Assembly (NCBI RefSeq): GCF_964204645.1
Contig: NC_134025.1
Span: forward strand, 16,343,101-16,407,100
Direction: 5' to 3'
Source: Tubulanus polymorphus
Lineage: Eukaryota > Animalia > Nemertea
DNA: 64,000 bases
This document shows positions 27,019 through 61,121 of this stretch, piece after piece (position 1 is the first letter of the stretch; every line of letters starts with the position of its first letter). Below the pieces are notes generated by a model. The model saw only the letters and a program-made list of their open reading frames with translations. It did not search any database and was not told the origin of the DNA. Position numbers and translations under genes: made by a program.

Positions 27019-27080
27019 GTATAATACATATTTTTATTAAAATTTGATTAACACGTTAGAATTCTTTTCATTATCTCGTT

Positions 27081-31550: not shown

Positions 31551-31840
31551 ACCAAAGCTTGGACGAGCTTATTAGTTTCGCTCTACGAATAGAGGGTATT
31601 CAGCTTATGGAAAATGAGCGGGAGGATAGATCCAATATTCCTGTTTATCAGGTTCGCTCTTCCGAGGCTGCTAGAAATGATGAGATTACGCGCCTGCGTC
31701 AGGACTTTGAGAGGCTTAACGCTAATATCAGTAAAGTCGTGTCGCAACGAAATGACTATCCTGAGTATAGGTTAAAGCAGTGTTATCGATGCTTAAGATA
31801 TGGCCATTGTAGGAACCCCCCCTTCTTCTCATCCTCATAG
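31551..31840 (+). pseudogene. Gypsy gag, 3' part with degenerate zinc knuckle; pol and 3' LTR missing
   Basis: KLWQTNYQ|SLDELISFALRIEG is continuous once copy B is removed; CYRCLRYGHC. Confidence 0.82.
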
Positions 31841-32074: not shown

Positions 32075-32256
32075 AGGCACGTCGCCAGATTTCAACACAA
32101 TGTTCTATTGAAATACCATCAAAAAGTGGTTCCCAGCAGACCTCATTAGCTCAAAAATCAGTAGCAGTATAGTGCGCACTGTTGTGCCCCAAATCAAATT
32201 TTCGCGTCAAAGGTGGTAATAGTAGAGATTATAACAGAAATTTCATGGGTGATGAA

Positions 32257-32350
<94 letters not shown>

Positions 32351-34858
32351 ATGGTGATGATGAATTTTATGATCCCTCATGGAACCCAGATGAAGAATCA
32401 GAGTAAGATTGAAATTTTATTTGATTGAAATGCATAACAGTATCAACTACAGAAATCAGGAAATTCCGAACAAAATCTTTAGAATATTTATTACGATTAA
32501 TTTCTTGAAAATTATTATTCAGTGTGTGTCATAATTAATTTCAGATGCATCGAGGAAGCAGATGTCTCCCTTCAAAATGAACCAAACTTAACTTCTCCGC
32601 ATCAAGAGACAAAGTTTTTATGCTTCGAGTCGTGTGTGTTGGGATTATTGGCGCTTTGCAACATTTGTCTCGCGCCTTGTAAAATAGTTAAGCGGTCGGT
32701 GATTGGTTCTGCGATGCAGTATGAAACAGTTTGTTCCGGCCCCGAGAAACATCATCGAATTTGGTGTTCTCAGCCCATGCATAACAGAATGCCACTAGGG
32801 AATCTGTTAATGGCTGCTGGCATTTTCTTCTCAGCTGTATCGCCCAGCAAATTTCTTACTTTTTGTAAGGGATTGAAAATAAGTATGTTTGGGATACATC
32901 ATTTCTTCAAGTTACAGTCCAGTTATCTGTACCTAGCTGTTGATAATGTTTGGAAGTCAAGTCAAGCCATACTGATCAGGGAGCTTCAGCAGCAAGGAAA
33001 CTCACTTGTTCTTGGTGGTGATGGTAGATGCTGTTCGCCAGGGCATTCAGCGAAGTATGGCTCTTATTCAATCATGAACATAGGTACAGAAAAGCTTATC
33101 GACTTCCACCTTGTGCGGGTAGATCTTAATTTTAGTTGATAAAATTTCTCATAAATTTCTGAACATTTCAGAATACCAATGACACATATTTTGAACCTTT
33201 AAAATATGACCAATCAAGGAAATAGTTGTTAACCCTACCTGAAAATTTCCTGTTGCATATATGTTTTAAAATTCTTAATTATTCCTTAATTTGCATTATT
33301 CACTCAGCATATGTTGTTAACTTTTCAGAGCAACTAAGTCAAGAATTCGAATGCGATGGAGCTTGAAGGTTTCAAACGATGTTTGAATTATATTCAGGCA
33401 CAGAAACTCAAAATCGGAGAAATAATTACAGATAGACACGTTCAAATTAAAAAGTACCTTCGGCTGAATCATCCATCTATACAGCATTACTATGATGGAT
33501 GGCATCTTACTAAGGGTAAAAAGCTCTTTTCGAATTTTAATTCATATGATTTACTCTGTTACACATTAAAAACCATAGTCTCGAAATTTAAAATAGGTTA
33601 GGTACTTAATTTTATTGTAAATTGCAGGAGTTTTCAAAAAGATAGAGAAGGCAGCAAAAACTAAGAAGTACAGTGTGCTTGGAGATTGGTCTCGATCAGT
33701 TAGTAACCATATTCATTGGTGTGCTGCAAGTAGCAATGGAATGGCAGATGCTGTTGTGGAGAAATGGAAATCCATTTTAAATCACGCAGCTAATGTACAC
33801 GAAGGTCATGATGGAGGCCTTTTCCAGGAATGTGCCCATGGTACTCTTGAACCACGGAACTGGATAAAAAACGGTCAGTGCTATAGTGCAGTTTTATGTA
33901 TCTTTGTTGGTTACATGTATGTACATGTATGTGTGATTTCACTTTAAAAAAAAAACATTGTAACATTGATCTTAAAAAACTGTCTCTAGGATCTGCTCCA
34001 CACAAAGTATTGAAGGGTATCGTGATGAACAAAAGCTTACTCGCTGACATAGGGAATATTTCACCGCGAGCCCAGACATCTTCACTCGAGTCTTATCATA
34101 GGGTTGTGATATACTTTGCGCTTAAGTCACTGCATTACTTTTATGACTCGATGAATGCTAGGTAATTTGAAAATCCTTTGATGATAAAATGAAAAATTAT
34201 GTTTAAATGTATGATGTTTATCTTCACTATCATGATCTAGAAACAAATCTTATTTTCTATTTAAAGACTCCAACTTTCAGCTCTTCGTTATAATGAGAAC
34301 CATAACAGAATGCAAGCTCATACAAAGGAGGGTATTCCGCAGTATCAGCTGTACTATGCTAAGTGGAAGAAAGGTATTGCCGCTGCCAAAGAAGTTAAAG
34401 TACCAGCTACATATAGTGAGTAAATTTTAGCGATTAATCTGATCATTGATTATTTCGCCTTATTTTTTTCATACAATGATATTGTGACTGAATTTTGTTG
34501 TATTGGATAGTATATAAATGAATTTGCGTATTTATAAGATTTATGATTATAAATTCGCTTTATCTAATGAATATAATGCATTACTCTAGGATATCTATCG
34601 GAATGTCTTCAAAAGGTGTGGAATGTGCGACAAGAAATACCAAATGTGGCTACTGCTATGGATATGTGGTTGGAGACAAGTAAAACAAAGGAGAAGGGTT
34701 TCATTGCTGATGTTTATGATCGATCTCAAATCAACAAGGAAGATGTGATATTAACACATACCAGTAGGTTCCACCAACCGGTAAAAAGGCCTGCAGAAAC
34801 TCAGCTGGAAGAAAATAAAAATTCTGGCAAAGCCAGAAAAAGGTCCAAAAAAAGTTAA
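32075..34858 (+). pseudogene. Multi-exon Kolobok-type DDE transposase (5' end missing, in-frame stop near 33336)
   Basis: GDGRCCSPGHSAKYGSY, MELEG, ITDRH, YDGWH, WSRSVSNHIHWC, QTSSLESYH separated by GT-AG introns. Confidence 0.8.
32260..32349 (+). repeat. (GAT)~30 microsatellite, poly-Asp in a probable transposase exon
   Basis: Directly visible; flanked by DEFYDPSWNP. Confidence 0.95.
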
Positions 34859-34944
34859 AAACATGTTTAGACTGACCGGTGTCAGTTTTTTATGACTCAT
34901 ATCTTATAAATAATATATTTTATACTGGATTATTAAAAACAGAA

Positions 34945-36228
34945 TTAGAGAGCATCCGGTATTTGTGGATATTGAAAACCAGTGTATATATTGTCTGGTG
35001 ATGGCCACTGGAGTCTTATTGCACTAACTACGCAAGATGGTAGAATCCGCCGATTTCTCTTCCCTAGTATTTTCCATGCCCACCTGCAAAATCGTCTGTA
35101 GGCAACGTGTCTGTACAATCTGCAAATATAGAAGAATTTTCAATGATGTAAAAATAGATCCACTTTTTGTATTTTTTTTATTACGTGTACATAGAAATAT
35201 TTGCCCTATATATATAGTTATAGTTACTATCCCTTTGAACTGATGATATTGAATTAATATTTACTTATAAACTGGCTCTTCGTAGCCAACAGGTCCATTC
35301 TGCTTTACAAATTCATAAAATGATACTTTCAGCACTTCTGGATCAAGGCAGTTTACTTTAAATCCATGGACTTCAGTGATGCATGTGGCCTGATCATTTT
35401 CCTCCATAATGGTTTTGAGGTCTCCAAATTCATTGCAACAGACACATTCTCTCGGTGTCTGCATTGGAGAACAATAGTAAACCCTGTTACACTATTTCTG
35501 CAAGAACACCTGAAATATATACATGTATAAGCTTATACACTGCTGTAGTAATAATGTAAAATCATGTATGTAAAGCCTATTTTAAGAATTGCATATATTT
35601 GCAGAAATAAACTTATGAGTTACCGGGTCTTGAATTTTACTAACAAACATTTAATGTACTTGAGAAACGCCTTATGGAAGTGTCATCACTCACTGTAGTA
35701 TTTATAATTTCTAATGGCAAATCGTTGAACAATAAATTAGATTGAATTTGACTTTAAAGCTCGCTTTTCGTTGATATCGTTGAATTTCTGTCTGGATCCT
35801 TTTTATTATAGACTGATACTTCAGAATATATTATTTTGATATTTTGCCAGTTATTTTATTTCTTTGATATTCTTTGAACTTGTCAGAGCAATAAGTTACT
35901 TCGAACCGTTCGAGGCCCTCCGGCCGGACGGACGTTAGTATTTCGAGCTGTGGTGTGAGTTTACGCCGATTTGGCAAGAATATGGCTCTATTTTTCGGGA
36001 ACGGCAAAAAGAAGTAAAAATACGAATAATACTATGTATTATCATCGTACCAATCTGTGTTGTCCTTACGCTGGTCAAATTCGTCGTCGCTAGATATTTC
36101 TTCGGAATCGGATGCAGACGACGTCGACGAATCACTACCGCTAGAAGAGTGCCGATCTTGTTCTAAATCGTCGGGCTCAGATTTCAAAATCGGTTCAAAC
36201 ATGTATGGCTGGACCTCTTGTGGATATA
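34945..36228 (-). pseudogene. KolX / P2X7-ballast-like Cys-rich protein, 3' part (5' end at 53203-53146)
   Basis: QPYMFEP, ECVCCNE..CIT...F...CL, YRHVAYRRFCRW..LG..NRRILPSCVVSAIR..WPSPD..YTGF; convergent with the transposase. Confidence 0.82.
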
Positions 36229-36790
36229 AGTAATAGGGGTAATGGGCTTTCAAGCCAAAGGTCGAACGGTCGAGCTCATTAAAAAACAAAACATTAAAAA
36301 TAATTTAAAACTATAATATATTTTCATAACCGTGTGTATTTTATATTATAACTAAATATTTATTCTAAGATATCAATAATTTAAATTTAAAAAGCATATT
36401 GTATTAAATCAATTGGTCGCTCCACTTCGCTACCGCTCCGCTCCGCGACCAATTGATTTACTTACAATACACAAATTCATATAATCAAATATATTTTAAT
36501 AATAATAATTATTCTATTATTCAACTGAAATACACACGGTTATGAAAATATATTATAGTTTTAAATTACTTTTAATATTTGTTTTTAATGAACTCGACGA
36601 TTCAACCTTTAACCTGAAAGCCCATTACCCCTATTACTCTTAAAATAATCATATACATGAATAACATTTAAATTGACAGATTATTCAATATAAAAGTATA
36701 TATTTACAACATTATTTCAATATTCATATTTGTGTGAGTTAGATTTTTAAACATTAAAAGTGTTAGTAAAGTGTGATTGAAATAATGCAT
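36229..36790. repeat. Left TIR of copy C (410-bp palindrome 36229-36638)
   Basis: Inverted match to 52584-53145. Confidence 0.95.
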
Positions 36791-36844
36791 GATATAAATC
36801 ATTGAACTTCTAAAATCAATTTTAATAAAAAATTTAGTATTAAA

Positions 36845-39800
36845 ATGGAAGCAAATAAATACTACTGTCCAACATGTAATATCAATATATATAAATCCCA
36901 AAAAGCAAGACACAATAAAACTAAAACACATTTAGAGAATAAATTGAAATTAGAATATGAAGATGATATATTAGAAACTAAATTAGATGAATTAAAGAAT
37001 GAAAAAGAAACATACAAATGTGATACATGTAATCAATCATTCAGTGATAAAAGATATTATAATGAACATTTAAAATCTAAAAGTCATATTAGAAATAAGA
37101 ATAATGATATTTTAGGTGAAGATTATTTTGATAATGATAATGATAAGAAACAGAAGACAATTAAAAGCATAAAGAATAAATTAAACAATAAAAGACCATA
37201 CATGGAAGATGTAAGAAAATATATTAATTCATTAGATAATAAAAAAGATATAGAGATAACCGAAGCATTTAAAAGTGATATTGGCCCAGCAGCTATCGAG
37301 TTTAAATTTCATAAAGGAAAAACATTAGAAGAAAATAAAAAACATTTAGAAAATATGAAAGAAATAATAAAAATAATAACTGATGTTGAATATCCTAAAA
37401 TAAGTATATCTTCTAAAGTTAAATTCATAAAATCTGAAGATAAACCAATATATAATATAAATTCTCATTCACAACATATTATATATAAACAACATATAGA
37501 TGATAAATTAGATAAATGTTATAATGAAGTAAAAACTAAAATAGAAGAGAAACATTTTGAAGGATCTGGTTTAATATTTGATGAAATAATATTTATGACT
37601 TTACATGTTTATAACACAAAATATAATAAGTTAACTAAATCAAAACCAATTGATGAAAATAATGTATCATATTATAAAGAACCAGATATTGAAGCATCAA
37701 GTTATATTAAACTACCATTTAAAACTAATGCTGTAATAAATGTACAAAATGAAGATGATAAATGTTTTCTATGGACTATAATAAGTTGTTTACACCCAGT
37801 TGAAGATTATAAACAACATAGTTTTAGATTAACTCATTATAAACCATTTGAAAATAATTATAAGATAGATAAGTATCCTGTTAGAATTAAAAACGTCCCA
37901 AAGATAGAAAGAGATAATAATTTAAGAATAAATGTATTTGATTTAATCAAATTACCAAATACAAAAGGTAACAATATAAAACATTATACATTAGAACCTT
38001 TATATCTATCAAAAGATTATGATTCAAACAATGTTATAGATATACTATATTATGAGAATCATTATATGTGGATTAAACAAATCGATTTATTTTTTAAATC
38101 AGAAAGTGATCACCATAAAATATATCTTTGTAGAAAATGTTTACATAAATTCAGTAATGAAAGTACATTATTAAATCATAAACAATTATGTGAAAATCAT
38201 GATTATTGTAAATTAGTTTTACCAAATGAAAAGGATAAAATATTAGAATTCAAAAAATATGATTACAAAAATAAAGTTCCATTTGTTATATATGGAGATT
38301 TTGAATCATTAAATAAAGAATTAACTGATCAAAATAGAAAAGAAATATATTATAAAAGAAAGAAATTATATCCTAATGAAAATGATTTTTCAGATGAACC
38401 ACCAAAAACAAATACTATTAAAAAGATTCATCAATCAGCTGCAGCTTTCGGGTTATATATAAAATCTGATTATCCAGAACTTATTGAAAGTGAATATTAT
38501 CATTATAGAAATGAAAATGTTATCAATCATTTTTGTGACTTATTAATTGAATATGAAATAAGATTTAGTAAATTATTGAATACAAATATAGAAATCATAA
38601 TGACAGAAGAAGATAAAGAAGCATTTGCGTTTGCAGATAAATGTTATTATTGTGAAAAGATATTTAATTATAAAGATAAAAAAGTAAGAGACCATGATCA
38701 TTTGAACGGAAAGTTTAGAGGCGCCGCACATGAGAATTGTAACTTACAAGCTAAGAAAATTAACTTTGTACCAGTTATATTTCATAATCTATCAGGATAT
38801 GATGCACATTTATTCATCAAACAGTTATGTCATAAAATAGAAGAAATTAATAATGAAATAGAAAGATTAAATTCAAATAGATCAAAAGATAAAATACCAA
38901 CTTATAAATTTAGAATGTTAGCTAAAACATCTGAGAATTATATATCATTCCAATTTGGGGGTTTAAGATTTATAGATTCATATTGATTTTTAAATAGTTC
39001 ATTAGATAACTTATCAAAATCATTTGTTGATGATGAATTAAAGATATTAAAAGAATATTACCCAAATAATGATGATTTTAAATTAATGAGATATAAAGGA
39101 GCAATTCCATATTCTTTCTATAAAAATCATAATGATTTTAACATAACTGAATTATTAAAAGAACAATTTTATGATGAATTAAAAAATGAATATGTTAAAG
39201 ATGAAGTATATAATAGAACATTGAATATTTGGAATCATTTCAAAATAGAAAATCATGGGCAATTAGTCGATTTATATCTAAAATCAAATGTATTATTATT
39301 AACCGATATATTCGAAAGGTTTAGAGATGTAAACCTAAAATATTTCAATATTGATCCTTGTCATTGTTATTCAAGTCCAGGATTAACATGGGATTGTGGA
39401 TTAAAATTTACAGATATAAAAATGGATTTGTTAACAAATATAGATCAATTATTATTATTTGAAAAATCTATAAGAGGAGGTGTTTCAGGTGTATTAGGGG
39501 ATAGATATTTCAATGTAAATGATAACCCTGGATATAAGTTATTATATATAGATGCAAATGATTTGTATGGTTGGGCAATGATGGAACCACAACCTTATGG
39601 AGTATTTGAATTAACTGAAGTTTTACAGAATGAAAATAATGATAAATTTGATTGGAAGAAAAGAATTCTAGATATTGCAGATGATTCAGATACTGGTTAC
39701 TTCTTTGTTGTAGATTTAGAATATCCTGAATATAAAAAATTTAAATCTAGAAATCTAGCATACTGCCCCGAACATAAAACTGTAACTCATGAAGAATTAT

Positions 39801-40859
39801 CAAATTACCAAAAAAGAATTAAACCCGAAAATCATATTCATACAGAAAAGTTAATGGTAACTCAAGAAGATAAATATAATTATGTAGTACATTATAGAAT
39901 ATTAAAGTTTTATCTAAAACAAGGAATGATCCTAAAAAAAGTACATAGATATATTTCATTCAGTCAATCTAAGTGGTTAGAAAAATATATAGATTTCAAC
40001 AGCAAACAGAACTGAAGCTAAAACTGATTTCGAAAAAGATTTCTTCAAGTTAATGAATAATGCATTCTATGGTAAGACTTGTGAAAATATTAGAAATAGA
40101 AATGATATTGAGTTAGTTAGTAATGGTAAAAGAATTAGACATTTACAATCATATCCTAAGTTCATTAGTAACAGAATATTCGATGAAAATTTTGCCGCAG
40201 TTAAAATGAGAAGAACATCAATGAAATTTAATAAACCAATCTATGTTGGCGCTTCAGTTTTAGAATTATCAAAATTACTAATGTATGAATTCTATTATAA
40301 TGTATTACAACCACTTTTTGGAGAAAAACATATAGAAATATTATATTTTGATACTGACAGTTACATATTAAAGATAAAAACTGATAACATAACAGATGAT
40401 TTAAAAACATTAAAACATCATTTTGATTTTAGTAACTATCCTAAAGATCATGAATTGTTTAGCAATGATAATAAAAAAGTTCCAGGGAAGTTTAAGGATG
40501 AATTAGGTGGTGAAGAAATGATAGAGTTCATAGGTATTAGATCTAAAATGTATTCATTTAAAACTAAAACTCATGAAGCTAAAAAGTTAAAAGGAATAAC
40601 CAAAAGTGTAGTAGAAAAGAATATTTATTTCAAAGATTACATCAATTGTATATTCAATGAAGAAGTTAGAAAACATAAGATGAGATGTTTAAGATCTGAA
40701 GATCATGAAATGTTTAATGAAGAAATTGAAAAGATAAGTCTAAACCCATTTGATGATAAAAAATATATTTTAGATGATGGAATTCATACAGTTGCTTATG
40801 GTTGTAATTTAGATGAATTCTTCAAATTTAAAAGAGAAGAACAATGCATCAATGATTAA
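36845..40859 (+). pseudogene. pPolB (ZnF, vOTU-like, exonuclease with EndoVII-like insert, polymerase), copy C
   Basis: Same motifs as copy B; three ORFs separated by a stop near 38986 and a frameshift near 40012. Confidence 0.95.
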
Positions 40860-41040
40860 TAAAGAAAATTATAATATAGAAAAAGTAATTGATTTAGTTA
40901 AATCACCTTTAGAATATTATGAATTAAATGAAGATGGAATTATTGAAGATAATCATAAAAGTAGTAATGAAATAAATGTTGAAATAATCATAAATAAGTT
41001 AAATAGATATTTTGATGATAGTAATTTTTTTGATAAATAA

Positions 41041-41261
41041 ATGAGTGATAACAAGTGGATAATAACTGGATTATATAATGGCGCATTACTTCAGTTGGAA
41101 CTGTTGGTTATTCAATGGTATTCAAAAAAGTATTCAAAATGGGAAGTGTTAATGTTGATAGATTTGATATAAATGATATTTTAAAATTAACATTAGCAGT
41201 TACTTTATCTAATTTAACTATCGATTATTTAGAAAAACAAAAATATATTCCTCCCATATAA
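41041..41261 (+). pseudogene. 73-aa hydrophobic protein, frameshifted
   Basis: Matches intact 62622-62843. Confidence 0.75.
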
Positions 41262-41285
41262 ATACATAATTATTTTACTAAATAA

Positions 41286-41708
41286 ATGGCTTCTGCAGTT
41301 ATAACTATTATAGGATCGGCAATTGTTAACGCTTTAGCATTTACAGGTGGCGGTTATTTATTTAAGCATATTGATAAAAATGGATCATTAACCGAACAAA
41401 AAAGACATAACTTAGCATTAGAAAAATATAATAAAGCTGCGGAAGAATATAGAGAAAAGAGGCAAAACTATATGGATTATATTAACAAAGAATTATATGA
41501 TCAGAAGATTTCACACAGAGATTTTCAATCAGTTGATGATGCAATGAGTTTATATAACTCAGTAACCAATAAAGAAAAATTACATCTGTACAAACCCAAA
41601 TTATCAGATTATTATACCCCAAGTAATGAACAACAGAAATATGAAATAATTTGGATTTTAGGTGGAACAGTTATTGTTATATTTGTAGCGTATAAGTTTA
41701 CTAATTAG
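41286..41708 (+). CDS. 140-aa protein with hydrophobic N-terminus and C-terminal TM helix
   Basis: MASAVITIIGSAIVNALAFTGGGYLF; IIWILGGTVIVIFVAY; present in all copies. Confidence 0.78.
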   Translation: MASAVITIIGSAIVNALAFTGGGYLFKHIDKNGSLTEQKRHNLALEKYNKAAEEYREKRQNYMDYINKELYDQKISHRDFQSVDDAMSLYNSVTNKEKLHLYKPKLSDYYTPSNEQQKYEIIWILGGTVIVIFVAYKFTN

Positions 41709-41728
41709 TAATTTTTTTTGCTAAATAA

Positions 41729-42163
41729 ATGGAAGATAAAGTTGATAATATTGATATTATTCCTCATGATATCAGAAAAACTAAATTAAAAATATATTTA
41801 GAAAAACAAATATTAGAATTTGAAAGTGACTTAAAGATAAAAAAGAAAAAATATTTAAAATCCAAAATTATATATTATTTTATTATTAGTGGTTCAGTTA
41901 CAATTAGTTCTGTAATAACATTTCTAGCAATATTCAGTCCATTAACACCTTTAGCTATATCAATTGGCGTATTAGGATTAAGTTCAAGTGTTTTAACTGG
42001 TATAAGTTCAAAATTAAATATAAAAAGTAATAAAGAAAAAATCAAAACTAATATAAAAGAAATTAATAAATTAAAGAATACACTAGATTATATAATAAGT
42101 TTAAATGGTCATATAACAGTTGAAGAACGAGATAAATTATTAAAAGAATTGATAAATTATTAA
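41729..42163 (+). CDS. 144-aa protein with two TM helices flanked by coiled coil
   Basis: Hydrophobic hairpin IIYYFII..VLTGI; present in all copies. Confidence 0.78.
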   Translation: MEDKVDNIDIIPHDIRKTKLKIYLEKQILEFESDLKIKKKKYLKSKIIYYFIISGSVTISSVITFLAIFSPLTPLAISIGVLGLSSSVLTGISSKLNIKSNKEKIKTNIKEINKLKNTLDYIISLNGHITVEERDKLLKELINY

Positions 42164-42179
42164 TTTTTTAATTCTATAA

Positions 42180-43500
42180 ATGGCAGATAGTTTTCCAAAA
42201 GCTTTCCAATATAATAAATCAATTAAATATAATACTCCAGCAATAGATTTTAATAAAGATATTACATATAGAAATGAAGTTTTAAATTCATTAATTGATT
42301 TATATATTTATGTTACTGAAAGCAATAATTTTCATGTAAAGATGGAAAATATATTTCATGTGTATACAATTAATTTTAAAAATTTAAATGAGGCAAAACA
42401 ATGGTTATTAAAATCTAATATGAAGTATTGGCAGAACCAATTAATTTTTGCTGTTTAATGCGCAACAACAGGATGTGGAATTAGTTGGAATGATCATTTG
42501 AACAAACCAAGTTTACCATTGATGTTATGACTTTTTAGATTTCATACATATTTTCAAATAAAATTAATATTAGATGAATTAGAATTTCCTTTACCAGGAT
42601 CAAAATATTTTAAAGAATTGAATTATAATATTAATTTTTCTAAGTTTTATAAAATATGTAATGAATTTAATATTAATTCAAATAAAGATTTTAGAGCAAA
42701 AATTGGAACAACGGGTGCATTAGGAATATTATATACTAAAGAATTTGGAATAATAATGACAAATTCAGATATAAGAACACTAAATTGGAATGAATTACCA
42801 AAATATTATAATAATATACAACAACAAAATAATAATGGTTGGGTTAATTTCATTTTAGAAAATAGTGAAGGTTTTACTAAAGCTGGTATACAAAGAATAA
42901 ATCAATCTATTAGAACTTATTCGATATGTATTTTAGGCGCGCAAGTTGAAACAAGATCCCCAATAATTGGAAATGATAACACTTCATTCGATGCGCAGAA
43001 ACAATTCAAAGTATTATTTGAAGATTCCATTCATAATGATAAAAATAGATCGATTCCAGAAAACATTGTAAGATATCAAAATTATTTAGATAAATCACAT
43101 ATTAGATTAAATTATTGTATAGGCCCTAATCTATTAATTATTTCTAATGATTTAGTATTAAAGATGGGAAACATAATTGGTTATAATAATCTATTTAAAA
43201 CTGCAACAATAAATAATTCATTTGGATTAAATGATATAAATAAAAAGATTATCACTGCTCCAAAATTAATGGAAGGTGAAAAAAAAAAAAAAAAAATTCA
43301 ATCAACAGAAACTAAAACTAATAATATTAAATTAAATAATGATTCTAAAATAAAGGATTACAATACATCAGAAAATATTAGAACTGATAATATTCAACAT
43401 GAAATAATTAAACTAAATGATGATAATAAATCCCATGAAAATACTTAATTAGCTTTAACTTGTATAGGAATTGTAATCGGAGGAATATTATATTTTAAAT
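42180..43500 (+). pseudogene. Conserved unknown ~435-aa protein with C-terminal TM helix
   Basis: ORFs 42180-42458 and 42618-43448; homologous to 10269-11411. Confidence 0.72.
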
Positions 43501-43520
43501 TTTAATTTTTTATTATGTAA

Positions 43521-45105
43521 ATGGCAGAAGGTGGAGGAGATTATGAAATGGGAGAAATGGGAAATAATAATGAAGGATTTATACCTGATGAACCACAACC
43601 TGATTTTAATGAAACTAATATTGATAATGATGATGAATCAGCATATAATTCTAATTTAGCAGATAGTGGTTCTAAAGCCCCATCAACAGATGAATTTGAT
43701 AGAAGAACTAGATCGAGAATACCTCCTGAAAATTTAAATCAAGGTTTATCAAGACAAGATTTAGAATATAATAAAATTATTTATAAATTCAAACCTGTAT
43801 TTGAAAGATCTGGGTATAATATAAGTGATAGAGATGCTGAACTTTTAGTAGAAAATTTAAAACTTTTTAAAAGTAAATATTATTATCATTTGGATGGTGA
43901 TTATTATATTGATATCACTAATCAAAGGACAAAACTAAATAAAATATTAGCGGAATCAACTTTGAAAAATTTAGAAACATTTAGAATTAAGAGAATAAGT
44001 AATAGTAATGAAATAACTGATGTTACACAAGAAGAAAGAGATGATAATATAACAGAATTTAGTGAAAGAATTGATGACTTATTGAAAATAATCAATAAAA
44101 ATTCAGAAACAGAAATGGAAGAGTATAGAGATCGATTTGATAAATTAAGATCTTCAACGCCCGAAACATCGAGAAGAGATATTCAACAAATTGATAATGA
44201 TTCAAGCCAATTAAATTATGGTAAAATAATTGATACAATGAATTCATTTGAAGAAGATATGATTAGTATTTTAGATACACCCGGTACTGAAACTGGAATA
44301 AATCGAATACTATCTTTACTTGAAAAAGGATTACTTGATTTAACTGATGAAGAATTAAAAGAATTTCCTGAACAAGCACGTAGAGAAATTAAAGGTATGC
44401 AAGAATCAGCTGGTGAAATTGCTAATATTAAGATGAGATTTTCTAAAATAACCATGTTAGAAAAAGAATTAGCTAATGCAAATGAAGAATTAAAACAATT
44501 AGAATTAAATGAAAATCTTCAAGTAATAGAGGAAGCTGATTATGAAAGCAGAAAGTTAGCTTTAGAAAAAGAAATAGATGATTTAGAATATAACATAAAA
44601 TTACAAAAAGAAGAAAGAGATACATTATTAAAATCATATGATCTTAATCATATTAAAAAATTAAAAGTTATTTTTAAAGATTTGTTGATTAAACCAAATT
44701 CTAAAATATCATTAAAAGACAGAATAAGATTATTATTTAAGTTAGAAGGTATAACAATTCTTTCAATTCTAACATCTGTAACTATGGTATTTACAACAAT
44801 AGGTTTAGCAATATCAAATGCTTTGAAATCTACTCCTACTCCCAATAAACCAGATAAACCCCCAGATAATAATAATTCTACACAAGATAAAGTTAAAGAT
44901 GGTTTAAAGAAATTAGCAAAATATTTATGGGAACTATCTAAATAATCTGCTGCAGCATTGCCAGGAGTTATTGCATCAATTGTTGGTTTTATATTGAAAT
45001 CTGCAGGAAACATTATTAACTTTGCTGCTGAACATATTATTTTATTTTTAATTACAGTTGTAAGTGCTTAAATTTTCGATTAGTAAACATGATAAAAATA
45101 AATAA
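43521..45105 (+). pseudogene. ~520-aa acidic/coiled-coil protein with C-terminal membrane segments (stop at 44945)
   Basis: Heptad-rich region, LEGITILSILTSVTMVFTTIGLAI, LPGVIASIVGF after the stop. Confidence 0.75.
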
Positions 45106-45125
45106 TTAATTTTTTTGTTAAATAA

Positions 45126-46372
45126 ATGAGTGGGAGTTATATCAATCCTTCTAAGAATCATAGAATATCTAATGCTATTAAAGCAGAAAGATCACATCAT
45201 ATAATTACTCATAACCCTTCTAATATTAATCCTGATGAAACTTTATATGTTAGAATCTCGAGATTAACACAAAATACTTTTTACGTTCCAAATAGTATTT
45301 ATTTATCTGCCGATATAAAAGTAATCGGTAATAATAAAAATTATGTTGTTGATAATGTTGGAAGATATTTGATTAAAAAAATTAACAATAAAGATTGGTC
45401 CAGAAACAGTTTTCTCATTAGATGATTATGATTTATTTATGCATTATAATGATTTATGGTTAACTAAAGAAAATGGAAATAATATGATATTTCAAGGAAT
45501 CCAATCAGAAAACCAAAATAAATTAAGATCAGAAGCTAATAGCGCAATAATAACTAATGCTGTAGATAAATTGATAAAAAGTATATATGGAATCAAATAT
45601 AAAATTCCATTAGACTTTGAATTGATAAATAACAATGCACCTTTATATAAATACGCAATTCAAGAAGATGTTATATTCAAAATAACATTTGCTCCTGTTA
45701 ATGAAATTGTAATATCTAGCGTTAATAAAGATATGAGTTATAAATTATCGAATATGTTTAGAATATGATACAGTAACTGATGAAAATATTTCAAGTATAA
45801 TTCAAACTAAATACAATCAAGGATTTTCATTATTATATGATTATATTGATAAATTTAAAACTGTAACTATTAATGCAAATGATGAATTAATTTATGAGAA
45901 TATTAACTTCCCAAGAAGATCTATTAAAGGTATATCAATATTTTTTACCATTGCAACATATACTAATGGTGCAATAAATGTTGATAATTATTATAATCCT
46001 GAAATAACAAAAGTAGAAATAACTATCGAAGGAATAGCAAATAAAATATTTTGTCAAGGAATGAGAATGATTGATCAATGGCCAGAAATTAGAAAACATT
46101 TAATGAATGAAAAAGTAAAATCATCTGAAAATTGTAATATTAATCAAATTGATTATTATACCGGTAATAAATATACATTATGGTTAGATTTTAGAACAAC
46201 AGAGGATAATTCATTACTTGGTTCTGGAAAAAAAACTACAGAACACTAAAGATGGAATACAATTATTCATGACAAAGAATAAAGGAAGTCTAAATTTCAA
46301 AATGCACATTTATATTATATCTGACGCGCAATTAAATATTGTAAATTCACAATTAGATAGTGTTATGTATTA
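45126..46372 (+). pseudogene. Major capsid protein (probable double jelly-roll), frameshifted
   Basis: About 410 codons, beta-strand-rich, highly conserved with copy A; inferred from size, pattern and context. Confidence 0.7.
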
Positions 46373-46405
46373 AAATTTTAACTTAAATAAAAATATATAT
46401 AATAA

Positions 46406-47356
46406 ATGGAAGGAGGTAAAGTATATAAACATATTCCATACATAGATACACATGAAAATAATGATGGTTTATATTATGTAATACCTTGTGATATAGCTTT
46501 GATATTTGATCCTATTTTCAAAATTTATAAAACTAAACTAATAGAAATTGATAATAATAAAAGTGGTGTTGTTGATAATTTAGGTAATGTAATTGATAAT
46601 AATGTAATACCTTCTACATCTAATAATGTAATACCTACTAAATCTAATAATGTAATACCTACTACATCTAATAATGTAATACCTTCTACATTTAATAATG
46701 TAATACCTTCTACATCTAATAATGAAATAATATTAAATGTTAGTGAAAATAGAAATTATTGTGGATATTGTAAAAGTGAATTTTCAAACGCTACATCAAA
46801 TTGGAATAAACATATGAATACAAGGGTACATATAAATAATGTTATAGAACGTGTTGGTTTAAAAGAATTTATAGAACACTTAGATATTAGATATGTTACA
46901 AAGTTTGTTTCAAATCAAAAAGTAAATGCTAAAGAATTATATGAAGATTTATTATTAGCAACACCTAATAAAGATGAATTAGATTTAACCGATGCTACTA
47001 AATTAGAATCAAACATTGTAAATGAAATATTAGGAGCAAACACTAATAATAATGAATATGGTGCCGTATGGCACCCACATGGTGATATAGTTACAGGAAA
47101 GCGCATTGATAATAAAGAATCTATCAAAGTTAAATCAGAAAATAAAGATATAGTTGAGATTACTAATAAGTATATCAATAAACCAATTATTTATGAAGAT
47201 ACGGTAAAAAGGGTGAAGAATAAGTACAAAAATAATAAAGAATTTGAAGTAGAAAATTCGGTAGAGAATTTGAATAGATTGTTAGGGTCTGATGATGAAT
47301 TGGAGAGTGATGATGAAAGTGATTCAGAAAGTGATTATCTAACACTCAAAAAGTAA
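46406..47356 (+). CDS. MEGGKVY protein, C variant: 8-aa repeats, one C2H2 finger, acidic tail
   Basis: NNVIPSTS repeats; CGYC..WNKHMNTRVH. Confidence 0.72.
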   Translation: MEGGKVYKHIPYIDTHENNDGLYYVIPCDIALIFDPIFKIYKTKLIEIDNNKSGVVDNLGNVIDNNVIPSTSNNVIPTKSNNVIPTTSNNVIPSTFNNVIPSTSNNEIILNVSENRNYCGYCKSEFSNATSNWNKHMNTRVHINNVIERVGLKEFIEHLDIRYVTKFVSNQKVNAKELYEDLLLATPNKDELDLTDATKLESNIVNEILGANTNNNEYGAVWHPHGDIVTGKRIDNKESIKVKSENKDIVEITNKYINKPIIYEDTVKRVKNKYKNNKEFEVENSVENLNRLLGSDDELESDDESDSESDYLTLKK

Positions 47357-47720
47357 TAAAGGTTGAAAATTGTATAAAATAATAGTAAATAAAAAAGGGG
47401 GTTTTAAGTATTAAGGTATCTAATACGCATTTAATACATATCTAATACGTATTTAATACATATCTAATACGTATCTAATACCTATTTAATAAGTATTATT
47501 TGAAAATACCTTAAATTATATTTCTTTTTTAAATTTATATTGAAACCTCAGTGATAATAAATAACCTTTATTATTTTCAAACTTATTCATATATTAGTTG
47601 AAAAAAATAAAAATAAATTGGTTGAAAATTGTATGAATAATATTTATTTAAAAAAAGGGGGTTTTAAGTATTAATGTATTTAATACGTATTTAATACGTA
47701 TTAGATAGATATATAAATAG

Positions 47721-48315
47721 TTATTTTATAAATTTATATTCATATGGAAATTGTAATCTCAGTAATAATTTTGAACCTTTATTATTCTTTAATTTATTCA
47801 TATATTCATCATGTAATTCAGTAGGTATAATTTGATTTTCTTCCAATGATTGTTGCATAGATTTTTTATCTTTGTTATAAAATAAAACTTGAAATCTTAT
47901 ATTCTCCCTAAAGTCTTTAACACTTGAATTATATTTTTGATTTAAAACCCGTGTTGTTATCCCAAAATAGATAACATAACTCACTTTCTCTAACTTTTGA
48001 ATCATGTAAATTTGCGCAATCATCTATAATGAATGATGTATTTGATCCTTTATAAGTATCAATTGCTATTTTAATACAATTATCTAAATTTTCTTTTACT
48101 GTTTTAGGATTTAATATAATAAACTTTTTTATCTTAAGTATATCTCTATTATATGTTTTATTCATTTCATAAGTAGGACAGAATAATATTATATTATCAA
48201 AATGAATCTTATAAATAGTTTTTAACAAATCTAATATGAAATGTGTTTTACCACAATTGGTTACTCCAGTAACTAACATATTATGCGGTTCAAATATAGA
48301 TAAATCTTTATTCAT
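47721..48315 (-). pseudogene. A32/FtsK-like packaging ATPase, frameshifted
   Basis: GVTNCGKT, IIDDC; a small deletion removes the GRH motif present in copy B. Confidence 0.9.
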
Positions 48316-49426
48316 TTATTCTTTTAATTTTACTAGATAAAATCCATTCATTAAATTTATCATCATATCCTTTATATTTCACCAAAGAATACTTTTTTCC
48401 TTTAAGGGTTTTTGTTTTCAATACTTTTTCTATTTTGTATTCTATTTCATCTGGATTTGGTACAAGTGATAATTCTTGTTCATAGAAATAACCTAATATT
48501 TGTTCGTCTTTTAAATCTTCTAATTTATAAACAAATGGTTTAGTTAATATTATCTTTTTAATCTTGAATATTTCTTCAGTAAAATTTGGGGTATAACCTT
48601 TATAAAATGTTTTTCTATATTTAGATATTCTGACGTGTTGTCCTATTTTAAATTTAGGTTCTCCGAAATCATGTGTAACAAACGCTCCATATAAATTATT
48701 CCAAACTATTTCCGAATTATCTTCTTTTCTAGCTTGTATAGGTTTCATATTTATAGAACTATGTTTAGAATTATTATAACCTTTCACTAAATCATCTAAT
48801 ACATCGATATATTTATATGTTTCATTAGCAGTAAAATATTTCCACATTCTAGTTTTCAATGTTTTATTAAACCTTTCTATAATAGATGCTTTTTTATCTG
48901 AGTGTGTTGAAAAATATTCTACATCGTTATCAGATAATAGTTTTTTGAAATGTTTGTTATAAAATTCCTTACCTTCATCAAATTGTATCTTATCTGGAAT
49001 AGCTTCTTTAAATATAGATTTAAAAGCATTTGTTACTTCTATTCCAGTTTTATTTTTGATTGGAATTGACCATGCGTATCGACTGAATATGTCTATAACA
49101 TTCAGTATCCAGAAATATCCTTTATTGTGTTCTTCTAAGTTCTTCATATCAATTAAATCTGCTTGCCATTGTTGATCGATATATGAAACCATAACTTTTC
49201 TTGTTAAATAAGTTTTATCCATTTTCTTGTGGATTTGATATGTTGGTTGATTTTGTAACCATGATTTTAATTCACTATATTTTATATCACCGTGTGGGTG
49301 CCATACGGCACCATTACCATTTTCCTTATCAGATTTAATTTTATTCCATAATTCTGAAACGCTAGAATATGATACTTCACTTTCTGGGTTATAATATAAA
49401 TCTCTCAAATATTGTTCTTTTTTCAT
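48308..49426 (-). CDS. rve (DDE) integrase with C-terminal chromodomain, open frame
   Basis: WQADL, QFDEGKEF, IIERFNKTLK; YKIEKVL..SLVKYKGYDDKFNEWI. Confidence 0.95.
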   Translation of the reverse strand: MKKEQYLRDLYYNPESEVSYSSVSELWNKIKSDKENGNGAVWHPHGDIKYSELKSWLQNQPTYQIHKKMDKTYLTRKVMVSYIDQQWQADLIDMKNLEEHNKGYFWILNVIDIFSRYAWSIPIKNKTGIEVTNAFKSIFKEAIPDKIQFDEGKEFYNKHFKKLLSDNDVEYFSTHSDKKASIIERFNKTLKTRMWKYFTANETYKYIDVLDDLVKGYNNSKHSSINMKPIQARKEDNSEIVWNNLYGAFVTHDFGEPKFKIGQHVRISKYRKTFYKGYTPNFTEEIFKIKKIILTKPFVYKLEDLKDEQILGYFYEQELSLVPNPDEIEYKIEKVLKTKTLKGKKYSLVKYKGYDDKFNEWILSSKIKRINE

Positions 49427-49432
49427 CTTATT

Positions 49433-49801
49433 TTAATCCATTGATAATAATTTAGATTTAGTTTCAATGGTTTTATGATTTGACTTATTTTCTGGTATGA
49501 TAGGTTTATTGTCATTGGAATCATCTTTATCATCAGATTTGAATTTTGATTTATATATTACACCGGATAATATAATAACTGTTACTAATCCAATTGTAAT
49601 ATATAATTTATAATTACTTCCAGCATTAGAAGAATCAGATGGATTATTATTTGAATCAATATCAGATAAAGTCTGTGATTCATTTATATCAGTTAATTTC
49701 TTTTTCTTAGCTTTTTTTAATTCTGAAGATCTTTTACCTAATTCTCTTGCCCATATAATTTGTTTCTCGGATCTAGCCTTTGTCTTAACGCTATCACTCA
49801 T
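49433..49801 (-). CDS. 122-aa basic protein with one TM helix
   Basis: LYITIGLVTVIILSGVIY; homologue at 21027-21397. Confidence 0.7.
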   Translation of the reverse strand: MSDSVKTKARSEKQIIWARELGKRSSELKKAKKKKLTDINESQTLSDIDSNNNPSDSSNAGSNYKLYITIGLVTVIILSGVIYKSKFKSDDKDDSNDNKPIIPENKSNHKTIETKSKLLSMD

Positions 49802-50397
49802 TTATTTTAGTTAATTTTTGTTCTGATTCATTTTCTGTTTCGCTGTTTGGTTGTAGTACATCTGTTTCGTTCTTACCTGATTTATATTCCATAGGCTTGA
49901 TGTTCGAAAATGTTATGACGCCAGTAGAAATTAATGTCATAACCGATCCTAATTGAAATGAAGCATAACCAACCCATTTTTGTAATTCAGTCATAACTAA
50001 ATAGTCATTTTTCAAATCACTATATAATTTAGTTTCATCATTAATTGGTATTAACTGGTTACATAACTTAGAATAACATTTGACAATACCATCACTTATA
50101 GAGTCGTTTATTCGGGCTAATCTTGCCTCTTCATAAATCTTAAAATATTTTATTACTTTATCGGGTTTCATAGCATCTAGTTCTTGAAAAGTAATAATTC
50201 TATTTAAAAAACTCTTTAGTTTTTCCACCGGCAATCAATAATTCTAGATGATGCTTACAATATAAATAGTATTCATAATCAATATTGTTATTAACTTGAA
50301 TAGAATTAGAAACAACTGGATCCTTATTATCACTAATACCTAAATCATCTAATGTTTTATAGAATATCAATACTATTCTTACTCGATTTCTTTGACA
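49794..50397 (-). pseudogene. Conserved unknown ~200-aa protein, frameshifted
   Basis: Homologous to 20432-21034. Confidence 0.7.
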
Positions 50398-50727
50398 TTT
50401 ATATTAGAGAAAAAAAGCAAAAAAATATTATAAGTATTCTTCAAATGATACTAGCTAGTTAAAGCTAAAGAATTCTAGTATTGACTACTGATACTAGCTA
50501 TTTGAATTTAAAGAATTTCTATTTGAATCTATTCAAAATATAAAGTATTCTCTTTTTGAAAAAAAAATATTAAAAATATAATAGAATTCACTAGCTAGTT
50601 GAAGTTATCGTTTTTTTATTATATTTTATTTGAATTCTATTTGATATCACCATGTGGGTGCCGTACGGCACCATCTCACTACTTTTGTTTATCTATTAGG
50701 AGCAGTAATTATGACTGTCCAGATAAG

Positions 50728-51403
50728 TCATTTCGGATCCTTGATATCAAATTCCTCAACGTATCGTTCATTATTTGGATCATTGTTCCATTGATCAATA
50801 AATTTCTTTGCCTTTGTTAACTGTTCTAAATATAACTGTAAATCTAGTTTATTAGATTTGATTTGATTTTCTTTCTTTTCTAAAGGCCTTAAATTTTTCC
50901 AACCCCAAATAAGTTTTTTATTGTATTCATCATTCATGTTAAATTTAGATATTGGTAACACGTGATCAATATGGTAATAATCCCCATAATTATCTATATT
51001 CATTTTATCATCGAATTGAAATATAATCCATGATTTGAGAAATTCATCTGAACAACCCAATAGATTAGATAGTGTTTCTGAATGTGTTTCTTTGTTGAAT
51101 TATTGTTAATCTAGATCTTAAGCATTGTTTCAATCTAAAATAAAGATCTGTTTGATATCTTTCTCTCATATATTCTGCCATATAATAATTATAATGTTCT
51201 ATATTATCTTCTCGGTATTGTTTGGTATATAGTTTAAAACAAGTTTTACAGCAATATTGAAAACCATCTTTGCTAATCTTACGCTTACTAAATTCTGTTA
51301 AAGCTAATTTATCTAATTCACACTTAGAACACTTCTTGTAGTATATATTTATAACACCAGTGTTATTTGTAATATTGATAGTTTGTGGTTGTTCTGGTTC
51401 CAT
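50728..51403 (-). pseudogene. HNH endonuclease, frameshifted
   Basis: KKCSKC..KDG..CKTC; HIDHVLPISKF..NLRPLEKKENQIK. Confidence 0.78.
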
Positions 51404-52583
51404 TTATTATACGTATTTTTTTACTAAATTGGTTAATATTTTAGATTCCTCTTCCATTTCTTCGACCAACGTCATCCTTTTTCATTCCTCGCTGCTTTTG
51501 ATAAGTCAGTTTCGATTCCTTGATATCTAAATAATACCACTGGGCAAAACCGCTCTTATAGGAGCGTTTTTCCTTAATGCGCATGTGTTAATCATAATTA
51601 TATATTCATTCTGTAAATTCTGTAAAATGGAAACAACACATGCGTTACATGCGTCACATGCGGCCATTTATGGCCGGTTTTGCTTAATGCACATGTGTTA
51701 ATCATAATTATATATTCATTCTATAAATTCTGTAAAATAGAAACGACCGAACATAGAAAATTCATACGCATTCATGTCCTCGTCACATGCGTTACATGCG
51801 TCACATGCGGCCATTTATGCGCGCTTTTGCTTAATGCGCATGCGCTTATCATAATAGAAACGACTGAACATAAAAATTCACCAATCAGATTTACACAATA
51901 CATTATACAAGTTGTTCGTTTCTTCCAATACATCATTTGATTTCTATAAATACAATTTATAATTACAAGCATTTTTTCAATTGCTGGTAAATATTTAACT
52001 ACATCAACAAATGTTAAACTTAATCATTGGAGTCTTAATGTTTTTGAAATTCTTATATAGTTTCTTCGTCGATCTTTTGGCAATTCTTGTGTTTCTTGTG
52101 CTAATTTCTATTGGTTCGATATCCATTGCTGTTGATTCCTCAGTCAGAAAGAGTATCTTGAGTTTCTCTATCACTTCTTGATGCGTATGGCGTTTTATTA
52201 ATCTAAAAGATATTAGCGGCAACTCTAGCCATCTAAAAGATATACTAAATACACTTAAATATATCTAAAGGTTTCATATTTAATATCCCTAATAACTACA
52301 AAAAACAGTACTTACATTTAGATTTAGAATTGTAAACTATAAACTCCTAATTTCGTTTCGAGAGATAGAATATCCTGAGCGTAATGTTACAGCGCCTGTT
52401 CATTTCTTGCCACGTCATCTGGTTCCGGTTCTAGAGTGTTATCTACACGTTTGCAATAATGACTCATATGTCTCGGCGTCATAGTAACAGCTGTAACAGC
52501 TGTGAATTTATAGATTTATTCAATAGTTCATTACATGAAATGTATATAGGTTCAAATAGAATCATGTTCTAGTATAAACAGCT

Positions 52584-53145
52584 ATGCATTATTTCAATCA
52601 CACTTTACTAACACTTTTAATGTTTAAAAATCTAACTCACACAAATATGAATATTGAAATAATGTTGTAAATATATACTTTTATATTGAATAATCTGTCA
52701 ATTTAAATGTTATTCATGTATATGATTATTTTAAGAGTAATAGGGGTAATGGGCTTTCAGGTTAAAGGTTGAATGGTCGAGTTCATTAAAAACAAATATT
52801 AAAAGTAATTCAAAACTATAATATATTTTCATAACCGTGTGTATTTCAGTTGAATAATAGAATAATTATTATTATTAAAATATATTTGATTATATGAATT
52901 TGTGTATTGTAAATAAATCAATTGGTCGCGGAGCGGAGCGGTAGCGAAGTGGAGCGACCAATTGATTTAATACAATATGCTTTTTAAATTTAAATTATTG
53001 ATATCTTAGAATAAATATTTAGTTATAATATAAAATACACACGGTTATGAAAATATATTATAGTTTTCAATTACTTTTGATGTTTTGTTTTTTAATGAGC
53101 TCGACCGTTCGACCTTTGGCTTGAAAGCCCATTACCCCTATTACT
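52584..53145. repeat. Right TIR of copy C (palindrome 52736-53145)
   Basis: Inverted match to 36229-36790. Confidence 0.95.
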
Positions 53146-55259: not shown

Positions 55260-57455
55260 ATGTCAGATGTTGAGCATGATGTGTGTGAGCCCTTGGCCTT
55301 ATCTAGGCCTATGTCACCAACGGCCGGAGCTGCACATCATGACCTCCTGGTTAGTGGGGAGGGTAACCTCTCGTTAAAACCAAAACGTGGCCGTCCAACG
55401 AAGACAAAAGCTGAAAATTTGAAAACATCTGAGGATTCCATCCTCCAGCGACTGACTGAAGTGATGGAGAGGGTCATGACGAGAGATGCACCCACCCCGA
55501 AAATGCACAATATTCCGGCACCCAAGCCCTATACCATGGGACACAAACAAAGACTGTGGATGACTTTAAGATGTTGTTGAAAGGGAGGGACCAAAAGACA
55601 ACTGAATCTGTGGAACGCTATGCCGACGAGTTAGCAGAACTGGCAAGGAACGCATACCCTGGCATTGCCTTCGAGCTGAAGGATGAATTGGCCAAAGACC
55701 AATTCCTTAAAGGTAATAGCCTACCCGTCTCAGCGAAGCAGTCAATGTATGCGGCCCAGCCAAGTTCGTTGGCTGCAGCAGTCGCCAAGCACGGACTCTG
55801 GAAACAGCGAGATGGTTGACTGAGGGCACGACTCATAAACAAAAAGTATCCGTTAACCAGACCCAGCTCGACTCGACTAGCTCAGCCATAACCAAACAAC
55901 TCGACGAATTGAAATCGATGATGGGAACGCTGATGACTCGAGTAGGCCATTTGGAAGCAGTTGTCTCTGGTAATGGCAATCGTCGACCGCCCGCCGATGA
56001 CAAATGTTGGCGTTGCAGGGATGCAGACCACCCCAAAAACTTGTGCCCACAAGTTAAATGCTATAATTGCGGGGGGAGTGGTCACTATTCAAGTAACTGC
56101 CACCTACCTAAGGGAAACCAGGGAAACGAGAAGCGGGGTTTTCAGGGGGGCAGTGGAAACCCCATCAGGAAATAGTCCCCCCTGTACCGCTGTATATACC
56201 CCCCGCAAGACGTAGAAAAAATCGGATGAATATGGCAAATGGTCTAACGTGCGATGCAAGTAGAGATGCACCTATTGATGGTTACCATCATACTAGCCCC
56301 ACCACCGTGAGACCATCAAACCATATTCAAATGATATCGAGACCATCAAACCATATTCAAATGATATCGAGACCATCAAACCATATGCAAACGACACCTC
56401 AAGATGGATATGTGGTTGCTGGCCCGGCATGTGATTCTAGTGGAGATACACCTACTGATGGTCCGCATCCTACTAGAACCATCACTGTTAGACCACCACA
56501 ACATACCCAAAGTATAGAAGAAAATCGACGTGACCCTTCGGAGAACAGTGAGGCTCCCAGTCCGGCTACGGAAAACACTTGTCACAAGTTGCGCGACACC
56601 AAGGTTCAAACAACAGGGAGAAAACCAGCCCAGACGAGCTTAGTTACAAACATCGGAACAGTGAGGCTCCACGCCTCGGGCCTTTTCTGTGATGCCGTAG
56701 TAAATGACCATTCGAAAGCGGTGGTACTCCTAGACACTGGTGCCTCCTGCACAATCATTAGGGTTCGGTATGGGACTCTAGTAGCCCGACTGGTGAAGCC
56801 GCTGCACTGAGGCCAATCAAAGGAATCGTGACAACGGCTACCGGTCAGCCAATGGAGTTACGTGGATTAGCTGATGTATGTCTGAGAGTTGGAACTGAAG
56901 AATTTCATGTCCCCATGATCGTCAGCGAGGATTTGGCACAAGACTGCTTGCTTGGAAGTGATTTCTTCGAGAAATATGGCTGCAATATAGATTACCGTAA
57001 CAAAGTGCTCCGCTTCGGAAGCCTCAGCGAGGTGCCTGTCCGCCAGAGCCCCAAACGCGCGAGCGCTTGCAGGGTGTTCATCAGTAAGAGCCAAATCATT
57101 CCAGCTGGATCCGAGGTGGTGGTAAATGGATACATGAAACGGAGTTATGCTCATAATAATTCGACCTCAGGGATGATCAGCAGCTGTGGACGGAATAATT
57201 TTTGCACTGGGAAAACACTTGTGGTACCGGAGGCAAACCAGATACCGGTTCGGCTGGCTAACTTCTCGGATGAGGCTTGTAGAGTCGACAGGGGCCAGAC
57301 TATTGGTCTATTCTGCCCCCTACAGTCAGTTGACATCATGACTGTCGACGACCATGCTCAAAACCCGTCAACTCCAAAAATCCAGCTGCAGGGTGGTGAC
57401 AATACTGAATTCATGGACCTCTTGAGAGAATTGAAAATCGACCAGCTTGAAATCC
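55260..57455 (+). pseudogene. Gypsy gag (two CCHC knuckles) and aspartic protease; truncated before RT by copy D
   Basis: ESVERYADEL..AYP, CWRCRDADHPKNLC, CYNCGGSGHYSSNC, LLDTGASCTI, CLLGSDFF. Confidence 0.88.
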
Positions 57456-57513
57456 CGTAAAAAATGAAAATAACAATAATTTCCAGTTGAATTAGTCGCG
57501 CACACTCCTAATT

Positions 57514-61092: not shown

Positions 61093-61121
61093 TCAAATTT
61101 TAATAAAAATATGTTATTAAA

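Follow-up and report, generated by a model that had tools for sequence, protein, structure and literature searches.

A poxvirus-type start signal in an AT-rich Maverick lineage suggests a pox-like helper

Mavirus (10.1101/068312) and Gezel (10.1101/2022.07.28.501842) share promoter motifs with their helper viruses, and mavirus is found integrated and inducible by its helper, as described in the openly accessible parts of these papers, a scope that applies to all publications cited here. Both were tied to their helpers by evidence of just this kind, a promoter of helper type on almost all genes. Polinton-like viruses (PLVs) linked to entomopoxviruses have been proposed to be poxvirus hyperparasites; they were found in occlusion bodies and have about 12 kb of DNA, a protease in all four, and either a tyrosine recombinase or no known integrase (PMC11296320, the accessible main text of which does not contain 'promoter', 'motif' or 'TAAAT'). 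Animal Mavericks (Polintons) may either be autonomous elements of the nucleus or live as parasites on larger viruses. Here, we analyse 64,000 nucleotides of the nemertean Tubulanus polymorphus (NC_134025.1, positions 16,343,101 to 16,407,100; 'the window' is this whole stretch), in which four decayed copies (A, B, C and D) of an AT-rich Maverick/Polinton carry the poxvirus-type sequence TAAATG over most of their start codons. We consider it rather likely that this signal represents two kinds of post-replicative promoter, both recognized by the cytoplasmic RNA polymerase of a pox-like helper that is still unseen; the element would then be part of a virophage-like Maverick lineage. The published record suggests that the poxvirus-type start signal in Mavericks is what is new here, virophage promoter matching and entomopoxvirus-associated PLVs being already known; no prior report of the motif in Mavericks was found in the openly accessible literature, including the accessible parts of PMC10328495 and PMC11097642.

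Homology defined 41 gene starts across the four window copies, a set that leaves out a duplicated 5′ fragment of the protein-primed family B DNA polymerase gene (pPolB) in copy B and one copy A gene without a start codon. Thirty-three of these starts read TAAATG, four TAAAATG, two TAAGATG and two something else; by copy, TAAATG stands at 10 of 14 starts in B, 7 of 8 in A and 5 of 6 in D, each of which has one further TAAAATG start. Among ATGs of the window that are not starts the share is 96/1642 (5.8%), and in Markov-simulated sequence, where the first ATG after a stop is taken, it is 1087/17776 (6.1%). An earlier sequence-only reading had listed 16 TAAATG starts, and all of them hold, with 15 coordinates exact and 50397 corrected to 50398; its exceptions are also right (TAAAATG for pPolB and a 117-amino-acid (aa) gene, TAAGATG for the integrase of copies B and C), and the enrichment, at 33 of 41 against about 6% in both nulls, is stronger than it had noted. 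We give practically no credence to a composition artefact, in which DNA of 22% GC and the calling of open reading frames (ORFs) from the first ATG after a stop would between them produce the pattern: TAAATG is indeed frequent in element DNA, but both nulls, as well as AT-rich controls in which it opens 0 of 12 and 6 of 84 ORFs, refute this.

The signal recurs outside the window, in a comparison for which 67 integrase-bearing metagenome loci (numbered with L) were gathered and ORFs of 100 or more aa were scored. TAAATG opens 7 of 7 ORFs in L001, 3 of 3 in its near-twin L002 and 14 of 15 in L003, where the fifteenth is an ATG inside an integrase gene that is broken. The window copies, being 80–97% alike in pairs, are not independent of one another; independence is provided by L001, L003, L006 and L008. 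Four-fold sites between relatives are near saturation (0.39–0.59 against 0.37–0.47 expected, nine gene pairs) while the motif persists, which argues that it is kept by selection. By contrast, TAAATG is found at 0 of 74 starts in seven long distant Polinton loci and at 0 of 7 and 0 of 5 in two AT-rich ones, is absent from the three starts of a second Polinton family, richer in GC, that also lies in the window, and opens 6 of 84 ORFs in unrelated AT-rich viral contigs, the four control contigs having come from a promoter-pattern scan. Uniform TAAAT(G) starts are thus lacking in the distant Polintons that were compared. In an integrase tree of 70 rows, built as a quick tree only, the window groups with L001, L002, L003, L006, L008 and a protein of Lineus longissimus (P0060), with a Shimodaira–Hasegawa-like approximate likelihood ratio test (SH-aLRT) support of 97; named relatives occur in Lineus and Branchiostoma and, like the retroelement fragments in the flanks, point to an animal host. 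TAAATG starts were also seen on other integrase branches, in the short loci L004, L005, L012, L035, L036, L046 and L052, some of these other-branch loci having 36–39% GC, so the trait may exceed the window's clade. Scans of IMG/VR with the integrase and with a capsid alignment returned no relative. Close integrase and capsid relatives (P0040, P0166 and their clusters) are filed under Bartonella sp. on contigs of 0.5–2 kb, which are likely host-derived.

Upstream of the start codon, two classes can be told apart. Positions were taken relative to TAAAT at 42 starts chosen irrespective of class, 41 of which have TAAA. Runs of at least five T span −14 to −7, lie at −11 to −9 in 22 of 41 starts and never fall at −5 to −1. 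Six or seven T within −13 to −7 mark 22/41 starts, as opposed to 1/77 non-start TAAATG; a further 14/41 have three T or fewer, and all 14 of these carry AAAA at −16 to −10 (10/77 for non-start TAAATG), leaving five of the 41 with an intermediate T content. The sequence-only reading had placed a T-run before many of its listed starts, which stands for 11 of the 16, the other five being A-rich instead. Its spacers of about 20 nt between genes are borne out by four gaps in copies C and D (16–24 nt) and are not general, as L003 has gaps of 3–325 nt. In late promoters of vaccinia, TAAATG overlaps the start codon and the T 10 nt upstream is conserved (PMC11980589; also PMC5294985), whereas the intermediate ones contain TAAA, which a TG follows in some cases only, are missing this T and have an AT-rich core 15–19 nt upstream (PMC11980589). 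The T-class here, with its T-run centred at −10, and the A-rich class, with TAAA(A)TG, suggest by their sequence a resemblance to late and intermediate promoters, respectively. A T-rich core with a spacer of 5–7 nt also belongs to a poxvirus late promoter, a layout that the T-runs at −14 to −7 share. The A-class includes the TAAAATG starts, and some of its members carry a T at −10. Given that intermediate TAAA is not always followed by TG and that a vaccinia intermediate scaffold based on G8R reads TAAAATG (PMC12917281), these apparent exceptions to the motif fit the second class. T-class starts belong to the genes for the capsid and the predicted membrane proteins; polymerase, ATPase, HNH and zinc-finger genes have A-class starts. 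The likeness to vaccinia has its limits: the signal here sits on an element without its own polymerase, the A-run is somewhat nearer, no early-type promoter was noted and the promoters are predictions.

Could TAAATG instead reflect the packing of a polycistronic genome, as stop–start coupling (TAA-ATG) or an overlap with poly(A) signals, the T-run being the terminator of the upstream gene? A few starts do directly follow an upstream stop (41041, 62622 and the L003 ATPase), and an A immediately precedes TAAA in 37/41 starts, often making AATAAA. The motif is nevertheless present at head-to-head starts, which have no upstream gene on the same strand: both members of the pairs carry it in L001 and L008, where the starts lie 19 and 28 nt apart, as does the kinase of L003, and these pairs argue against stop–start coupling. 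Furthermore, the midpoint of the T-run is held at −10.1 from TAAAT (standard deviation 0.8, 19 starts chosen as T-class) while its distance from the upstream stop ranges from −13 to +313 (12 starts); the run is therefore fixed to TAAAT and not to the stop. We regard this explanation as very improbable. Trans-splicing is unlikely, acceptors being rare (YAG at 2/42 starts). The baculovirus late motif is TAAG, and only the integrase of copies B and C has it (TAAGATG); the integrase reads TAAATG in copy A, L001, L003 and L008, and a baculovirus-type signal was rejected.

Fixed geometry, conservation, presence at head-to-head starts, absence from distant and co-resident Polintons, and a second class together uphold the promoter-like signal of the sequence-only reading; its further step, that a pox-like helper infects this host, is one that we infer. 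Under such a helper, an intact element would stay silent until the virus supplied the polymerase and stage-specific factors, by analogy with mavirus and Gezel. Transcription would start within the AAA of TAAAT, and the polymerase would slip, giving each mRNA a 5′ poly(A) leader that places an A-rich context directly before the AUG. A-class genes (polymerase, ATPase, HNH, zinc finger) may fire before the T-class genes for capsid and membrane proteins; intact members would replicate and be packaged only in helper-infected cells, with particle assembly taking place in the factory of the helper, and the rve integrase would insert the new copies. We count three further findings towards this. The ORFs scanned (window, L001 and L003) gave no match to a polymerase subunit, to a capping enzyme or to a transcription factor, GC content is 22–24% in the element copies compared with 34–38% in their flanks, and L003 encodes a deoxynucleoside kinase (L003:10340-10981, minus strand) with a T-class TAAATG start and three close unnamed relatives at 60–67% identity.

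A compact initiator read almost leaderlessly by the host's own nuclear polymerase, its likeness to poxviruses being convergence in AT-rich DNA, is an unlikely alternative. It would suit elements that lie in nuclear DNA in roughly 50 copies and a helper as yet unseen, and TATATAAA/TAAA does resemble a TATA box. However, a TATA box sits about 25–30 nt upstream of the start site and not on the start codon, a spacing that does not fit the signal here, and it could not be fitted in between head-to-head starts that are only 19 nt apart. A T at −3 is disfavoured where initiation on a normal messenger RNA proceeds by scanning, the motif is missing at the three starts of the co-resident Polinton family, and about five AATAAA per kb in coding strands would be a liability for nuclear transcripts. 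GC-richer sister elements (L072–L077; capsid 34–37% identical, similar gene set) show, at several of their true starts, a looser form of the signal, a T-run and then TAAATA, TATA or TAAA 0–3 nt from the ATG, as observed outside any formal count. This looser signal is a point in favour of the host polymerase; it also broadens the case and is compatible with several models.

Several findings weigh against a pox-like helper. The looser signal of the GC-rich sisters occurs among host-like repeats, and a host-polymerase model could also explain it. The match between class and function is loose and was read post hoc, most T-class genes having no known function, and orthologues of the 117-aa, 118-aa and 485-aa genes change class between elements. 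The A-run, at −15 to −10, is nearer than the 15–19 nt given for vaccinia intermediate promoters. Two features were compared as indirect signs of cytoplasmic transcription: AATAAA, linked to premature polyadenylation, shows no shortage in coding strands (observed/expected (O/E) 0.98; 0.94 in distant Polintons), so its frequency does not separate the readings, and a depletion of TTTTTNT (O/E 0.33) accompanies a general depletion of homopolymers. The L003 kinase has no poxvirus-named relative among 38 matches, most of which are unnamed. An integrated nuclear copy would need a route to a cytoplasmic polymerase, which only the analogy with mavirus supplies, and the link from motif to helper is drawn from sequence, with the helper still to be seen.

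Whatever reads the signal may be something other than a strict poxvirus, as TAAA-type initiators are also found in yeast cytoplasmic virus-like elements (PMC6211774). A pox-related cytoplasmic polymerase could thus belong not to a poxvirus-like virion but to an asfarvirus-like virus, to a linear plasmid of virus-like kind or to some other element that acts in trans, a source that we judge improbable. In the yeast elements the initiator is TAAAN and slippage occurs (PMC6211774), African swine fever virus (ASFV) has bipartite late promoters in which TATA lies at the start (PMC5294985), and the sister group has a T-run with TATA or TAAATA. Strict TAAATG over the start codon together with T at −10 is, on the other hand, the description of a poxvirus promoter, and the pox-early-like upstream conserved sequence of the yeast elements (PMC6211774) was not seen here, although no formal search was made for it. 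The pGKL1/2 elements of yeast share with ours a linear organization of pPolB type and a poxvirus-related initiator, and differ in encoding the polymerase within their own system and in the upstream conserved sequence (PMC6211774). The named genes of the T. polymorphus element include a capsid and an integrase. To our knowledge, pGKL1/2 have neither; transcription of pGKL1 depends on pGKL2.

Virophages offer the other comparison. Mavirus and endogenous mavirus-like elements (EMALEs), as well as Gezel-14T, are likewise small capsid-coding DNA elements with a helper-type promoter motif, known from protist hosts and with mimivirus-type helpers and motifs (10.1101/068312, 10.1101/2022.07.28.501842, 10.1101/2025.10.09.676808), whereas here the host is an animal, the capsid is of Maverick type, the motif is of pox type and the helper is unseen. 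A virophage-type (Lavidaviridae) capsid was not matched, the mavirus capsid ranking 44th at 9% identity, below those of iridovirus and Paramecium bursaria chlorella virus 1 (PBCV-1), and the gene set is Maverick-like. From the entomopoxvirus-associated PLVs (PMC11296320) the element is set apart by gene content: it has an rve integrase, and a protease was not found. With a pox-type motif at hand, it becomes testable whether a Maverick lineage is parasitic; the motif could also sort Maverick lineages by their likely helper, and it leads one to expect pox-like viruses in hosts from which none may have been reported. It is a real possibility, although we stop short of calling it probable, that a widespread animal Maverick lineage consists of integrated virophages of pox-like viruses, with a two-stage promoter programme, fold-back ends and, in a GC-rich sister group, a looser signal; it would then mark undiscovered pox-like viruses in non-insect invertebrates and perhaps act as an inducible antiviral defence.

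The element is a Maverick/Polinton (Polintoviricetes), as identified by its terminal inverted repeats (TIRs), 6-bp target-site duplication (TSD), pPolB motifs, rve integrase, A32 ATPase and double-jelly-roll capsid, and it has the usual length of about 17 kb. It differs from described Mavericks in an endonuclease VII-like insert in pPolB, in its fold-back ends and in the protease, which is usual but not universal: no adenovirus-type protease was matched in Pfam among the ORFs scanned, some of which remain without assignment. Copy C runs end to end from 36229 to 53145 (AGTAATAG...CTATTACT) with the TSD GATATA, has several broken genes and lacks three genes present in copies B and D. Its pPolB (36845–40859, plus strand) is split into three ORFs (36845–38986, 39086–40015 and 40053–40859) that bear the catalytic motifs DANDLY, NAFYGK and YFDTDS in order, together with the insert (PF02945, E = 1e-5); neither Pfam DNA_pol_B_2 nor a PDB sequence search matched these ORFs. 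The pPolB start is an A-class TAAAATG. There follow, on the plus strand, the late-like promoter of a 75-aa gene broken in C (41020–41043; T7 at −13 to −7, then TAAATG) and a series of genes with T-class TAAATG starts: predicted membrane proteins of 140 aa (41286–41708) and 144 aa (41729–42163), a conserved gene of about 442 aa (42180–43490; three stops in C), which has 1372 relatives and for which a function search gave no assignment, a gene of about 485 aa with a hydrophobic C terminus (43521–45077; stops near the end in C) and the major capsid protein gene (45126–46370; four pieces in C). The capsid pieces of the window are 67–84% identical to the intact L001 protein, and the capsid of the intact relative is predicted to be a double jelly roll (predicted local distance difference test (pLDDT) 91.8, template-modelling score about 0.63 to the iridovirus and PBCV-1 capsids). 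A 316-aa zinc-finger-like gene (46406–47356) with an A-class TAAATG start closes the plus-strand series.

On the minus strand lie the A32-like packaging ATPase (47721–48315; PF04665, two pieces in C, A-class TAAATG), the rve integrase with a chromodomain (48308–49426; an intact ORF, PF00665, E = 1.7e-9), a 122-aa gene (49433–49801) whose A-class TAAATG start is inside upstream coding sequence, a gene of about 206 aa broken in C (49794–50398; T-class TAAATG start at 50398) and an HNH-nuclease-like gene in two ORFs (50728–51403; A-class TAAATG). Copy C has two long non-coding stretches, one where genes converge (47355–47701) and one before the right TIR (51565–51855), and both contain short direct repeats. 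Copy B (18583–31550) is also present end to end, with an internal deletion and the TSD ACCAAA; copy A (6858–13824, minus strand) is partial and more diverged (80–88%), and copy D (57460–64000, plus strand) is partial and reaches the window end. Copy D contains the 117-aa gene (TAAAATG start at 61122), a candidate minor capsid (penton) gene (61493; single-sequence model, pLDDT 39) and a 118-aa gene (62265).

The TIRs of copy C are 567 nt long and 99% alike (left, 36229–36790, plus; right, 52584–53145, minus), and the outer 410 nt of the left one form a self-complementary fold-back (z = −22) with the same fold-back orientation on the right. Each element end is a long imperfect palindrome of 410 nt in C (36229–36638 and 52736–53145), 189 nt in B (18583–18771 and 31362–31550) or 122 nt in A (13703–13824), with an outer stem that is perfect over 24–26 bp and resembles an unfolded hairpin end. 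Both ends of a copy have one orientation, and no flip-flop isomers were seen within copies B or C; no published description of such ends was found in the openly accessible literature. In a DNA run from another sample under the same species label, compared over 33500–43400 only, depth reaches about 550 over the element body against some 10 in the flank, and loose, mutually disagreeing ends occur at 36229 in 1676 reads. Free copies and flank divergence aside, the family is therefore dispersed at roughly 50 copies. Two further sequencing runs gave hardly any matching reads, a result without bearing on expression.

Rfam and tRNA searches gave zero matches. The second Polinton family (1–5000) carries a pPolB (PF03175, 449–3457) and a PC4-domain gene (3894–4484), and its CpG observed/expected ratio of 1.55 shows no depletion, compared with about 0.5. 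On either side of what is left of copy A lies an inverted repeat of 71 bp (6792–6862 and 13961–14031, 87%); the copy was perhaps captured by another transposon. Copies B and D lie in or beside sequence resembling long terminal repeat (LTR) retrotransposons (17948–18582, 31551–31840 and 55260–57460), with zinc knuckle and protease matches at 55918–57460 and gag-like sequence around copy B, as judged by eye. Other repeats of the window are 146-bp tandem repeats (16132–17361), a GAT microsatellite (32250–32355) and a stretch, presumably like a short interspersed nuclear element (SINE), that adjoins a fragment of a long interspersed nuclear element (LINE) endonuclease (5600–5930).

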